Under the pieces are notes generated by a model. The model saw only the letters and a program-made list of their open reading frames with translations, had not been told where the DNA came from and made no database searches. Shown piece after piece: positions 18,201-24,200 of a stretch of 64,000 bases of DNA. A program made the position numbers and the translations under genes. Position 1 is the stretch's first letter, and each line of letters starts with the position of its first letter. Source of the DNA: Phoronis australis (lineage: Eukaryota > Animalia > Phoronida); assembly GCA_002633005.1 (NCBI GenBank), contig NMRA01000450.1, forward strand, positions 288,876-352,875, read 5' to 3'.

Positions 18201-21200
18201 TAATTTTTTAATTATTTTTAATAGATTAAAATATAAAATCCAACACTTGCAAACAAATTGCCTCCAGGAGGGCCTGTTAAGAACTTAGATGATTGACAGA
18301 CAAGAACTAGTTGTCTTGTCCAATATTGTCAAAAATTAAAGTAGCCTGTGAGCAATACTTTTGGCAGCCACCAGGTGTCTCTGTTCACCATGTGTCTATA
18401 ATTTCAATGAACATTTTTTCAATTATAAGGATCTATGAATCTCAAACTGTCTCCACGAACTCTTTTATACTTCTATGTCAAGTGAATATTGGAACTTGTT
18501 TATCTTACTCCTCATACTTTTTATTTAAAAATCATCAATTTTCTTATATGTGTTAACACCAGTTTACTGTTGCATAACTTTTCAATTCAATGGGACTGCA
18601 GACAAACTGTTAGCTCAAATCAAGTTGCCCAAGACTTGATTATGGCTTAGTGAACATATTGCACTCTGTTCACTGGCAATATGGGCTTTTTTGTATTGGG
18701 ATAAGTTAGGATATATGCCAATTGCATTTTTTTTTTCAAGTAACCAACCTGTCAACATTAACAGGTCAAAAAATACCACCCATTTTTAATGCATCACTTC
18801 TTACAGGAAGGATCACCATAATTTGATTTTTTTTTCTGAAGACCACCACCCATGAATTTGAGTCGTGTAATGAAGCAGTGCTCCTTGCCCATCATTCAGT
18901 AGTTCACGTAATACTGTCCTTATTTGTTCTGGTTGTAAACAGCACATTAGTGAGAAGCTTTGTATCCCGTTAAACTTATTTGTTCCTTGAAGCCTCAGGG
19001 CGGCAGAGGAGCAGGGTTGAAAATCTGATCTTCGTGAGACTGGTTAACTATGACAATGTCACTGGTCATTGCTCTTTACTCTTTCTCACCCAGGCTGCGG
19101 TGGACAGCTGACGACACCTTCTGGCAGCTTCATGTCACCCAACTACCCACTTCCCTACGGACACAATGCAGAGTGTTACTGGCGCATCAGTGTGGCGCGT
19201 GGCTCAATCATACAGCTCATGTACCTGGACCTCAATATAGAGGCTCACGCCAACTGTAACTACGACTACGTACAGGTATTTGACGGTAACAGTCAGGCGG
19301 CGCCAGTTTTGGCCAAGAGTTGCGGCACAGACATTCCACCACAGATCACGTCGTCAGGAAGCGAACTCTACGTGAAATTCAGGACTGACTATTCAAATGC
19401 TGGAAGTGGATTCCACGCTGCTTACCAATCTTGTGAGTAGCTTGACTAGCTAGAGTTCACATGTCACTATTGCCGTTTGGTGTTATTATTATGAATATTT
19501 ATTGTTTTTGGTATCAGATTAGTATTATCTCAGGTTATTATGCCATGAATGCCATTATCCTTGCTTTGTACACTGTCATCTTGCCATCCTGCAGCAGCTT
19601 TTCTCTGTTCTTGCTCATCATAATTGATTGAAAGGAGGGACATCTGTAGGCAAAGTCATTGTAACATTTAATGACTGAATAGTTGATTGAAAGCAGGACA
19701 ATGTCATCCTATGCGATGCAGAGGTACATTGAATGCTTAATTCAATTGCAACTTACATTGAAAAAGAAACGGTTTCCGAGCAAGCATTTTGGCTAATTTT
19801 AAATCATTTTATATACACCGTTACTTTCAAACTTCAAATTTGATCCAGAAAATTAAACACCAGAAGTCCCCGTGACTGTAAAATGTGCAACTTTCAAGTG
19901 AAATGCGTGACCAAGAGAAGTGTGGAAAGCAGTATCATACGAAATGAAGGAAGTGTAAATTATAACAGCGTTAAGCATATTTCATCTTTTTAGCCATGAT
20001 AACTGTGCACAAAGCTTGCAACTGGTAGGCTTTTGGATGAGCAGTTTTATGTGCCAGCAATGTGAACTTCGTTCCCATGAAAATATAATTGTGCTGTTGT
20101 CAAAGAGACACGCTCAAGTTTAAATACTGATTTTTTGAAGATCTCTCGATACTCAATGGCTATTCTTCCACCCTATGAGTACCAGCCAGTCGTGTCTCCC
20201 TCCTATTTCTATCTATCTCTCTGTCTATCTTTCCTACAGCTTGTAGTGACATAGCCCTTGAGGGCAGGGGTGGCGTCATCGAGAGCCCCAATTACCCCAA
20301 TCCCTATCCGCACAACAGAGATTGTTCGTGGATCATTCACACGGACAGGGGTAACCAAGTCAACGTGACGTTCACAGACTTTAAGCTGGAATACCGCTCC
20401 TCATGCAGTGCTGATTATTTGGAGGTTTGTGAGATGCGACGCCTGCTTGGTCAGTACCATGGTCAGCACTGGCCGCGGTCACTTTTCTCTGCGCCATATC
20501 TACTACTGCATACTGTTGACAAAATATTAAGCAAAATGCACGTCTTTATATGTTGGCATGGCATTTCCTCCTGCTTAGCCCGCTTTGTATAATTTTACAT
20601 CACTGGACCAGGTGTTGTTATCCCCGTTCCATGCAAAATAGAATATCATTGCCCTACCTTTCAGCCAGATGGCACATTCCCTAGCACCACTTGATTTTAA
20701 AGAAATGTTGAGGCTTTTATAGTAGTATTTTAGTTAACTTAGAGATGTTAGCAACTGTTAGTTGCATTGCTTGCTCACCACCGCATGCACATTACCTTCA
20801 GCACTATGTAACAACAAAGCAATAATATTTGGACCACTTTAACAAAAAGGATGAAGTTTATCATTTTGGTCTTGGAGAAGACAACTGGTCCCACAGTGGC
20901 TTAGAATTTAGGGGATGATAGTAAATCATGGGTGTTGTTCACACACAGTAGGACTTTTGAAATTGATATCCAAGGTCAGTGAAAGCAGTTCTTTGTGAAC
21001 CCAGCCTCCCGTTCAGTAATGCTAGGACCTCACTAAAAAGCAAGACTTCGCGAGATTACGTGAGATATTGCCGTGCATTTTTATGCGCCCACATATTTAT
21101 ATGTGGACACATGCCGTCATCTCCATCCATCCGGCGTCCGTTGCTCTATTTCCAAAACGCCTTGACGTATGTTCATGAAATTTTGCACACGTGTTCCTTC

Positions 21201-24200
21201 CGTGGATGGGACGGTATGCGCGAACTTTCGGACGGATCCAACTACCGGTGTCCCCCCTAGTGGCAATTTTAGTTTTTTACGTTTACCTTTTCTCTGTATC
21301 TTCAAAAGTACTGAACGGATTTTCATGAAATTTAGTATATAGGCGCCTATTAATAACATGACGCTATCCTCCCGTTTTCAGATGGATTTGACGTAGTTTG
21401 CGCCACCTAGTGGCCATTTTTACTGTTTTCGAGTCTTTTTTTGCGTCCACCCCTCTATCGACCGAACCGCTCAAATGATGATTGTGAAAATTGGCATGTA
21501 TGTTGTCACTGCGAAGTGGACGGCTGACGATGATTTTCGAATGACTTCGACTACTGTGGCGCCTCCTAGTGGCAGTTTTTTTTTTGTTTTTTTTGCGCCT
21601 ATGGCTCTATCCCCTAAACCGTTTGCAGGATCTTTACTAAATTTAGTAAGTGTATTTATATGATGATAACAAAGGAGGACGACGACTTTCAGACAGATCT
21701 GACTACTGGTTTGCCACCTAGTGGCAATTTTAGTTTTTTTACGTTTACCTCTGTATGTTCAAAGGTCCTCAAAGTATTTTCATAGAATATGGCATAGAGG
21801 CATCTGTTTATGAGATGACGCTATCTCTCCGTTTTCAGATGGATTCGACTTAGTTTGCGCCACCTAGGGGGCCATTTTAACTTTTTTCGAGTCTGTTTTT
21901 TTGGCGTCCACTCGTCTATCAACCAAACCGCTTTCAGGATAATTGTGAAAATTTACATGTATGATTGTGCTATGAAGTGGACGGCTGGTGACGATTTTCC
22001 GATTTTCCTACGATTTCGACTACTTTGGCGCCTCCTAGTGGCAGTTTTGTTTTTTTGCACTCATGGCTGTATCTATTAAACCGTTTGCAGGATCTTTACT
22101 TAATTTAGCAAGTGTATTTATATGATGTTGTCAATGGATGACGACGACTTTCGGACGGATGTGACGAGTGGTCTGCCCCCTAGTGGCAATTTTAGTTTTT
22201 CTGTATCTTCAAAGGTCCTCGACAGATTTTCATAAAATTTTGAATATAGGCATCTATTGGTGAGATGATGCTATCATCCTGTTTTTGGATGAATCAAGGT
22301 ATTTTGCGCCACCTGGTGGCCATTTTTTGCTGTTTTCAAATCTTGTTTTTGGCTTCCACCCCTCGATCAGCCAAATCATTCTTGGTATGGTTTTGAAAAT
22401 TGGCATGTATGTTTTCGGTGTGAAGAGGACGTTTGATGATGGCGACTGACTACTGTGGCGCCTCCTAGTGGTAGTTTTGTATTGCGCCCATAATTGTATC
22501 TCCAAAACCCATTTTGTTTGACAAATTTTATTCCCAGTTTTATGTTTGTGACTTTTACAAGGCATTTTCACATGAAACACAATTTTGTGACAATAAAAGT
22601 ATATGAAATAAGATAATATGCGATTCATAGTTTTGTGATAAGGTAAACAGCTGTTATGATGCCTCATTTTAGTCGGAATTAAGCGGAAAAGATCTGTAGG
22701 CGGAATTGACCATCATGGGGTGGAGATGGCGTCTTGTCCGTTTTCTTTTGGCTTGTACTACAGCTGCCGCTGTCAGGAAGAAATGTCATGCCACAGTTTG
22801 TACTTGTATTTGTGTGTTGTTCAAGTGTTTAAAGTGAAAGTCAACATACCCACAGCAGTCAAACCTTACGCGGATAAAAATAGGTTAATAAGCAATTTGG
22901 CATGCGTGTCCAAAGGCAATATTTATGTTGTGAGGTTTCTGCATGTTGAAGCATGGCTTTCTTATGCAGGCTGTTAATAGTGTTAATGGTGTCTTGTTAG
23001 CCATTGTGCACTGTGCATGTTTGAACAAATCACTATCCAGCATGTCCCTCATTTCAGCATGCAACACGTTACTGCAGGCACCTCAAGGGGTCATCGAAAG
23101 CCCCAATTTCCCTCTCGCCTACCCCAACAACCGTGACTGCACGTGGGTGATCGATGTTTATCAGGGCAACAGGATTGATATCACCTTCTCGCACTTTTCA
23201 ATGGAGGACCACTCGGACTGCTTGTATGATTACTTAGAGGTGTGCAGAACAATATGAACATTTGTTATCCTGTGACTGTTGAGCAGAGAATACCATACAT
23301 GCCACAGTATTATATTTGTGTGTAAAATGTCTGACGTGAACCATGAGTCTTGTTTTGTCTATGCCAGATATTGCTCGTCAGATAACTATCATTTGCGCAT
23401 GGAGGTTCATTAAGTCCTTACTGTTTCCCTTAAAATACCGGTATTCATTTCACCCGTACGCACTTTGTACAGATGAACTTAAAGTGGAACTTGCACGCTA
23501 ATTTTCTTATCTCTGTGATTGCTTGGTTGAATTAGTTAGAAACACCTCATACAGTGATGTGAATATGCAGTAGGTTGAAAATTGTGAAATGTTTTGAAGA
23601 ACGAGTTTTGTGTGGAAAATGATCCGCAGTAAATCACTCAACCTTATGTGGTAAGTATCGTGACAGGGTGTTGGGGAATAACACTGCATGATGTGGGCTA
23701 TTTGAGCCCCCAAGGCACGTCATTAGTGCAAAGGTCAACTATTTGCAAAATTTTATGTTTCCACATTTACAAGTTGTCAATGAATACAACTGCACCTTGT
23801 TTAGCATAGATAATGTTCAGGTAGCATTGTCGTTCCTACCATACATTTTTATATAGCATAGTTAGGAGCATGCAAATACATCTTTAACTTCCGTGGTAGC
23901 CGCCATGTTCAAGTGGAATTTCATTGAACAGATTTGGAATTCGAGCCCCCAAAACTCACTTGAATTGCTTAATGGTGTTATAAACCAGAACTTTATAGCG
24001 TGTGCACTTACCACTATAAAACTGGTCTCCGCTCAAAAGTGATGTTTGAGTTAATTCTTTAACTGGCACTTTGTTATTCCTTGAGACCATTCTTGACACT
24101 TACGTGACCTGCTGTGACAAGCTAACTTGCTGAGCCTGGTCTGAAGGAGCAACAACCTTTCTGTACTTTTGAAGCCCTGAAGTTACGTCCAATTTTATTT

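Follow-up and report, generated by a model that had tools for sequence, protein, structure and literature searches.

The closest described system is vertebrate cubilin (CUBN), in which EGF domains are followed by a collinear array of CUB domains and whose CUB5-8 is known together with intrinsic factor-B12 (PDB 3KQ4). The same arrangement is found in the stretch of DNA considered here, 64,000 nucleotides of a contig of Phoronis australis (NMRA01000450.1, positions 288,876 to 352,875; the window, below), whose plus strand carries the middle of a cubilin gene. In this gene the N-terminal half of the eighth CUB domain (CUB8) is encoded twice, by neighboring exons termed A and B, which are spliced one or the other onto a common C-terminal half (N-half and C-half, below). 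Of the features of human and rat CUB8, that of the window retains the Pro, Tyr, Glu, and Asp, and its A form the sequon as well. It differs from the vertebrate case in that CUBN occurs 0 times in the supplement of a human catalogue of 236 tandem-exon substitutions (PMC8373072). Furthermore, intrinsic factor is not expected in the window's animal.

Arthropod Dscam1 has half-Ig alternative exons that encode the N-terminal half of an Ig domain. In both genes a constant C-half is combined with exchangeable N-halves of an extracellular beta-sandwich domain. However, the window has two alternatives rather than tens, its receptor serves cargo uptake rather than self-recognition, and docking/selector complementarity was not detected. 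Substitutions derived from tandem exon duplication are often old and tissue-specific (PMC8373072; except for its supplement and the reference title named below, papers with PMC numbers are cited here for parts of their text). They resemble the present pair in being homologous neighbors of equal phase, used one or the other, that swap part of a domain; unlike them, the window's pair has as its target half a CUB domain of an endocytic receptor. Alternative splicing of invertebrate cubilin is itself not new: abalone Iso-Seq has given nine cubilin isoforms per sex (PMC5368703, with the varying exons unspecified in that part of its text), and isoforms are also found for other molluscs and amphioxus in RefSeq. 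Unlike the window's gene, however, none of 25 annotated isoform or record pairs of mollusc, echinoderm, and amphioxus cubilins differs at CUB8 or CUB3. No earlier report of mutually exclusive cubilin CUB exons was found in the literature covered, from which most subscription journals fall out. Thus, the mechanism class, tandem-duplicated mutually exclusive exons, is already known; the cubilin half-CUB case is real, expressed, and recurrent, and its function is what we infer.

Exon A (20240..20424, plus strand) has 185 nucleotides and 61 codons, exon B (23058..23239, plus strand) 182 nucleotides and 60 codons. Both have AG/GT ends, run from phase 1 to phase 0, and match positions 1-60 of the 110 in the Pfam CUB profile (E 2.5e-16 for A and 1.2e-16 for B); as proteins they are identical at 30 of 61 residues (49%). 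Upstream lies the constitutive exon for the whole of CUB7 (19094..19432, plus strand; Pfam CUB 1-110), whose donor joins either A (19432>20240) or B (19432>23058). Downstream, one exon (24920..25082, plus strand; Pfam CUB positions 62-109) is the shared CUB8 C-half and has the third acidic position of the calcium site. When compared with human CUB5-8 (3KQ4_B), each alternative matches the fourth domain best, A clearly (51.5 versus 40.0 bits) and B narrowly (36.4 versus 35.3 bits). In addition, the bat cubilin segment collinear with A and B carries the peptides given to rat CUB8 in PMC9485058. A and B are alternative N-halves of CUB8, as the initial annotation had proposed, and its coordinates, peptides, and domain number were all borne out.

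The intron between A and B (20425..23057, no strand assigned; 2.6 kilobases) holds neither a CUB N-half nor a CUB C-half; copies of a dispersed repeat lie at ~21030-22510. In six frames, a C-half profile finds at best 4.9 bits there, versus 32.9-93.1 bits for the 23 C-half matches in the window, although the profile was built from window exons and 11 of those 23 matches are its training sequences. This agrees with a separate check and with the initial annotation, which had seen no C-half in the interval, and rules out a hidden C-half that would make A and B two whole domains. The possibility that either is a pseudoexon is likewise ruled out, since both are expressed. Nor are A and B two haplotypes, because they are only 49% identical in protein and their flanks are unrelated; a haplotype-like duplicate elsewhere in the window, at CUB12, has 94% DNA identity.

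Evidence for their use comes from three stranded raw RNA runs (X2, X3, and X4) and one contig set (X1) carrying the same species label. Of each run 18-19% was read, and reads were placed at 98% likeness on 18980-25140; joints were listed from 3 reads and 8% upward, and mates may count twice. The CUB7 donor is joined to A by 4, 3, and 2 reads in X2, X3, and X4 and to B by 5, 2, and 0 reads, plus one X1 contig. The C-half is joined to A by 1, 3, and 10 reads and to B by 5, 6, and 0 reads. All four exclusive junctions are GT..AG on the sense strand, and together they collect 41 reads, 23 for A (9 upstream, 14 downstream) and 18 for B (7 and 11). No joint from A to B and none skipping both was listed at the stated threshold, beneath which rarer forms could pass. 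Inclusion of both exons or of neither breaks the reading frame, since translation of the first product in the test model ends at codon 204 of 349 and that of the second at codon 125. A second donor 4 bases past that of A would be compatible with an in-frame product containing both, but no such joint was listed, and the reads end A at 20424. Thus, A and B are spliced one or the other, each joining CUB7 to the same C-half exon, and the alternative splicing at CUB8 that had been read from the DNA is seen in RNA.

Use of the two exons is biased between samples: one run has A only, and two runs have both. Reads for A and B stand at 12:0 in X4 versus 11:18 in X2 and X3 combined (Fisher p 0.0003, or 0.005 when only distinct read starts at the downstream joints are counted). 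X4 has no coverage at all on B, and the X1 contigs have none on A. A variant at 19137 accompanies B in X1 but A in X4, so a choice determined by allele is less likely.

The differences between A and B fall around the calcium site. Chain 3KQ4_B was converted to precursor numbering by an offset of 931, checked on three rat glycosylation sites; so numbered, either exon spans P1297, the sequon at N1319, and the acidic residues 1328 and 1336, which we take to be calcium ligands. Tyr-Glu-Asp-Asp is the signature of a calcium-binding CUB domain. Both A and B keep the Pro, Tyr, Glu, and Asp, of which the last three align with Y369, E397, and D405 of the human chain, and the C-half exon supplies both forms with an Asp aligned to the Asp of human LTD. 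The Pro that matches the disease residue P1297 thus lies inside the alternative exon; according to the title of a reference in PMC9485058, its mutation impairs recognition of intrinsic factor-B12. In mammals the calcium sites of CUB6 and CUB8 face and bind intrinsic factor, whereas in the human structure those of CUB5 and CUB7 point away from the ligand (PMC6283879). The description of mammalian CUB8 as a calcium-dependent ligand site is therefore to be found in the literature, and retention of the Glu and Asp ligands in both exons also stood, Tyr, Glu, and Asp being invariant between them.

Between the Glu and the Asp the net charge is +1 in A and -2 in B; over the 12-residue loop it is 0 in A and -4 in B, most relatives having -2 to -3. 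A change of this loop from basic to acidic had been claimed. Only its direction holds, A being +1 or 0 and B -2 or -4. In 36 of 45 aligned rows, including B, the residue just before the Asp is aromatic; A has Ala there and human Thr. The loop of A is atypical, with Arg and Ala where most relatives carry His and an aromatic residue, and that of B is the typical acidic His/Tyr type. An N-x-T sequon stands at the homologous position in A and in 36 of 43 relatives (33 by pattern, 3 more by eye), and exon B is the only one of the 45 CUB8 N-halves without any sequon; the rat site, N1319, is glycosylated (PMC9485058). Its presence in 36 of 43 relatives marks the sequon as ancestral, so B lost it rather than A gaining it, a point that may be added to the earlier observation of an NVT sequon in A only. 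A, with the sequon, and B, with the typical loop, each retain a different part of the ancestral state.

A tandem CUB8 exon is not confined to the window. Metagenome contigs scanned with an alignment of A and B gave 50 loci, of which 29 contain a CUB8-type N-half and 13 include both of the C-halves that flank it. Two tandem CUB8 N-halves occur in three of these 13 (L007 and L008, from one species, and L020) and also in L005, where the downstream flank is missing. Each of the six distinct exons runs from phase 1 to phase 0 between intact AG/GT ends. The three two-copy species form one clade (100/100) that excludes the window's organism and belongs to a protostome-like lineage. Their upstream copies are 70-77% identical to one another, versus 55-59% in the flanking domains, which points to selection on the upstream copies; these have a loop three residues longer, with Asn before the Asp. 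Both copies in these species lack a sequon at the N1319 position, yet the Glu-Asp loop differs between the copies. In addition, T at +3 of the donor, a departure from the consensus, is found in 2 of 47 window donors, namely, those of the first exons of both pairs (A and, at CUB3, 3A), and in the upstream-copy donor of 3 of 3 other species, versus 5 of the 70 remaining N-half donors of the fetched loci. A putative, consensus-like ACTAAC branch point lies no more than 25 bases from the acceptor of the downstream copies (just upstream of L005:2252, L007:2725, and L020:2157), and the acceptor of exon B has only an imperfect match to it.

Other cubilins vary in further ways. In five loci (L003:176-364, L026:1714-1899, L028:711-896, L033:1465-1650, and L034:50-235) Gln replaces the calcium-site Glu, the loop is longer, and a non-aromatic residue precedes the Asp; the Gln would weaken the site. 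The CUB8 N-half of protein P0365 also has the longer loop and non-aromatic residue, and in each of these six one copy is visible and a flank is missing. In mollusc RefSeq isoforms of five genera, at about residue 180 in the N-terminal region, a short Arg-rich segment is swapped for a non-basic one (P0307/P0176, P0309/P0177, P0310/P0312, P0311/P0313, P0179/P0326, P0336/P0195, and P0346/P0204, from bivalves and gastropods), which, as a guess, could add or remove a protease site. Amphioxus P0294/P0298 and P0297/P0172 show swap-type segments in the EGF region (~residue 402) and the CUB25 C-half.

The age of the CUB8 pair was approached through trees of these N-halves. A is nearer to a sea star (61%) than to B, and B is nearer to a mussel (60%) than to A. 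In the 45-row, 61-column tree, from which one mis-anchored row was left out, A and B are sisters in 0 of 1000 bootstraps, and A goes with deuterostomes in 866 of 1000; the approximately unbiased test leaves their sisterhood standing (p 0.34; 61 columns). A 49-row tree, from which 13 long or redundant rows and four near-duplicate locus rows were removed and to which new rows were added, groups A and B with the first or second exons of the other two-copy lineage in 0 of 500 replicates, and places that lineage's first exons with two of their own second exons. Since tandem CUB8 N-halves are also present in three species of another lineage, the CUB8 pair is old or arose twice: these alignments are compatible with one old duplication followed by losses and with two independent duplications alike. 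A bolder reading would make the pair an ancient cubilin ligand switch, inherited from an early protostome or even a bilaterian ancestor, of which most lineages retained one copy. Sea urchins, sea stars, and chordates would then have the A-like 61-residue form and molluscs, crinoids, and hemichordates the B-like 60-residue form, while the window's animal and the second lineage would have retained both, the upstream copy having a donor that is weak and, before the calcium Asp, a residue that is not aromatic. If this were true, specificity would have been switchable from the outset in the domain to which intrinsic factor later came to bind in vertebrates, but at present we consider it doubtful.

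Taken together, these results have led to a model in which the two CUB8 forms, made in proportions that depend on the sample, differ in the cargo proteins that they favor at their CUB8 calcium site; we think this probable. Exclusivity would come from splice-site competition, with a weak upstream donor, and from decay of frameshifted products, since an intron of 2.6 kilobases imposes no steric block and a crude test showed no docking/selector pairing. Both forms would still bind calcium because Tyr, Glu, and Asp are kept and the C-half Asp is shared. The charge of the loop, the residue ahead of the Asp, and the glycan found only on A may then alter which lysine- or arginine-presenting proteins are caught, and the choice may be regulated by tissue, stage, or condition. 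The suggestion in the initial annotation that splicing retunes a ligand site thus has its first part, alternative use, established by RNA, and the retuning is a reasonable reading of the residues, strengthened by the same CUB8 arrangement in three other species. Its example, tuning to different B12 carriers, found no support: intrinsic factor arose within the jawed vertebrates from one ancestral carrier (PMC4350170, PMC3331988), and rat CUB7-8 binds albumin as well, in a glycosylation-sensitive manner (PMC9485058), so that CUB8 is not B12-specific. Although human CUB8 contacts intrinsic factor (PMC6283879) and amphioxus and acorn worm have a carrier that predates the duplication, multiple carriers appear only in jawed vertebrates (PMC4350170), the window's cubilin groups, weakly, with protostomes, and cubilin with amnionless marks a general endocytic hindgut function across bilaterians (PMC12768270). 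A link of the swap to B12 carriers is unlikely, and separate tuning of A and B to such carriers very improbable indeed. The cargo would more likely be filtered or dietary protein generally, given the jawed-vertebrate origin of intrinsic factor and the role of cubilin and amnionless in general protein uptake.

A number of points weigh against the cargo-preference model. The junction counts are small, with a fifth or less of each run read and mates possibly doubled, and forms with both A and B below 3 reads or 8% would escape listing. As the runs may differ in tissue, stage, or genotype, the lack of B in X4 could reflect a deletion allele of B, and regulation of the choice is something that we infer. 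Complementarity between introns did not exceed that of 30 shuffles in any of 6 intron pairs, a crude single-species test. A single CUB8 N-half is present in 10 of the 13 fully flanked loci, mostly arthropod-like by sequence, and the 25 annotated pairs are alike at CUB8. The glycan site shown to be important for albumin is N1285 (PMC9485058), not the N1319 kept by A. Finally, the cargo preference of this cubilin, and with it a putative ligand, is predicted from sequence. A first alternative is that A and B, though exclusive, are functionally near-equivalent, the duplicate persisting because the frame rule makes it harmless and the ancestral features being merely split between the copies. The division of the consensus into a glycan site in A and a His/Tyr loop in B would fit, as would the calcium signature in both, the long branches of A and B (0.76 and 0.89 versus a median of 0.29), and swap-type exons at several other sites in invertebrate cubilins, which indicate that duplication is common in this gene. 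However, all frames and splice sites are intact despite 49% protein identity, the samples differ strongly in which exon they use, and three further species have this exon in duplicate and conserved, so that we regard near-equivalence as rather unlikely. A second alternative has less still to recommend it and seems to us improbable: that the main effect of the swap is on folding, on trafficking that depends on glycosylation, on stability, or on contacts in the cubilin trimer instead of on ligand choice. Altered CUB7-8 glycosylation sites do lead to oligomers or lost expression in rat constructs (PMC9485058), and B is the sole sequon-free member among the 45. Yet the calcium sites turned from the ligand in the human structure belong to CUB5 and CUB7, not CUB8 (PMC6283879), and the loops of the other three species differ between copies that both lack this sequon. 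Preference for different cargo is therefore the reading retained here.

A second pair lies upstream at CUB3, where exons 3A (9432..9616, plus strand; phase 1 to 0) and 3B (10455..10663, plus strand) encode two tandem N-halves before a shared C-half exon (11062..11218, plus strand; CUB match). In exon 3B the loop from the calcium-site Glu to the Asp is 8 residues longer, and the C-half profile finds no C-half between 3A and 3B in the window. The two are identical at 42 of 61 residues and are sisters in 981 of 1000 bootstrap trees. By these comparisons the CUB3 pair is lineage-specific and younger, the CUB8 pair deeper. Exclusive use of 3A and 3B is suggested by their arrangement; together with the CUB8 pair, it would permit four receptor forms.

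The remainder of the window is consistent with the middle of a cubilin gene whose ends lie outside at both sides; a complete cubilin has an N-terminal amnionless-binding/coiled-coil region, 8 EGF domains, and 27 CUB domains. An EGF Pfam match at 2897-3082 is among the last EGF-like exons, directly followed by the long CUB array, whose half-domain exons come in order and reach about CUB23 at the window's end. The constitutive segments CUB3C-CUB7 and CUB8C-CUB11 are collinear with named cubilins (38-62% and 37-56% identity). In quick trees of constitutive domains the gene falls with the protostomes, though support is weak (65/96); it lies outside the molluscs and arthropods sampled and has no close relative there. 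The two exons and intron of CUB12 are present twice (34196-37078 and 37077-39478; 94% identical as DNA), and one N marks the join (37079); rather than a true 28th CUB, this duplicate is likely an assembly join at which two haplotypes overlap. The dispersed repeat, with a unit of ~460 bases, lies at ~650-1840, 30670-32080, and 63420-63640 as well as at 21030-22510, and many RNA reads that come from other parts of the genome contain it. A second repeat of roughly 490 bases is found at 25178, 29711, and 35946, and a near-perfect minisatellite of 41.5 copies of a 20-base unit, with an N inside, at 11530-12361.

Cubilin has been treated as a single, fixed, multi-ligand scavenger, and here splicing swaps half of a domain that carries a calcium-dependent ligand site. 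To our knowledge, few ligands of cubilin have been described outside vertebrates. Since the natural forms differ in one half-domain only, they would offer a clean comparison of the part that CUB loops and glycans play in cargo choice, and the A and B forms could also inform what an invertebrate cubilin takes up.

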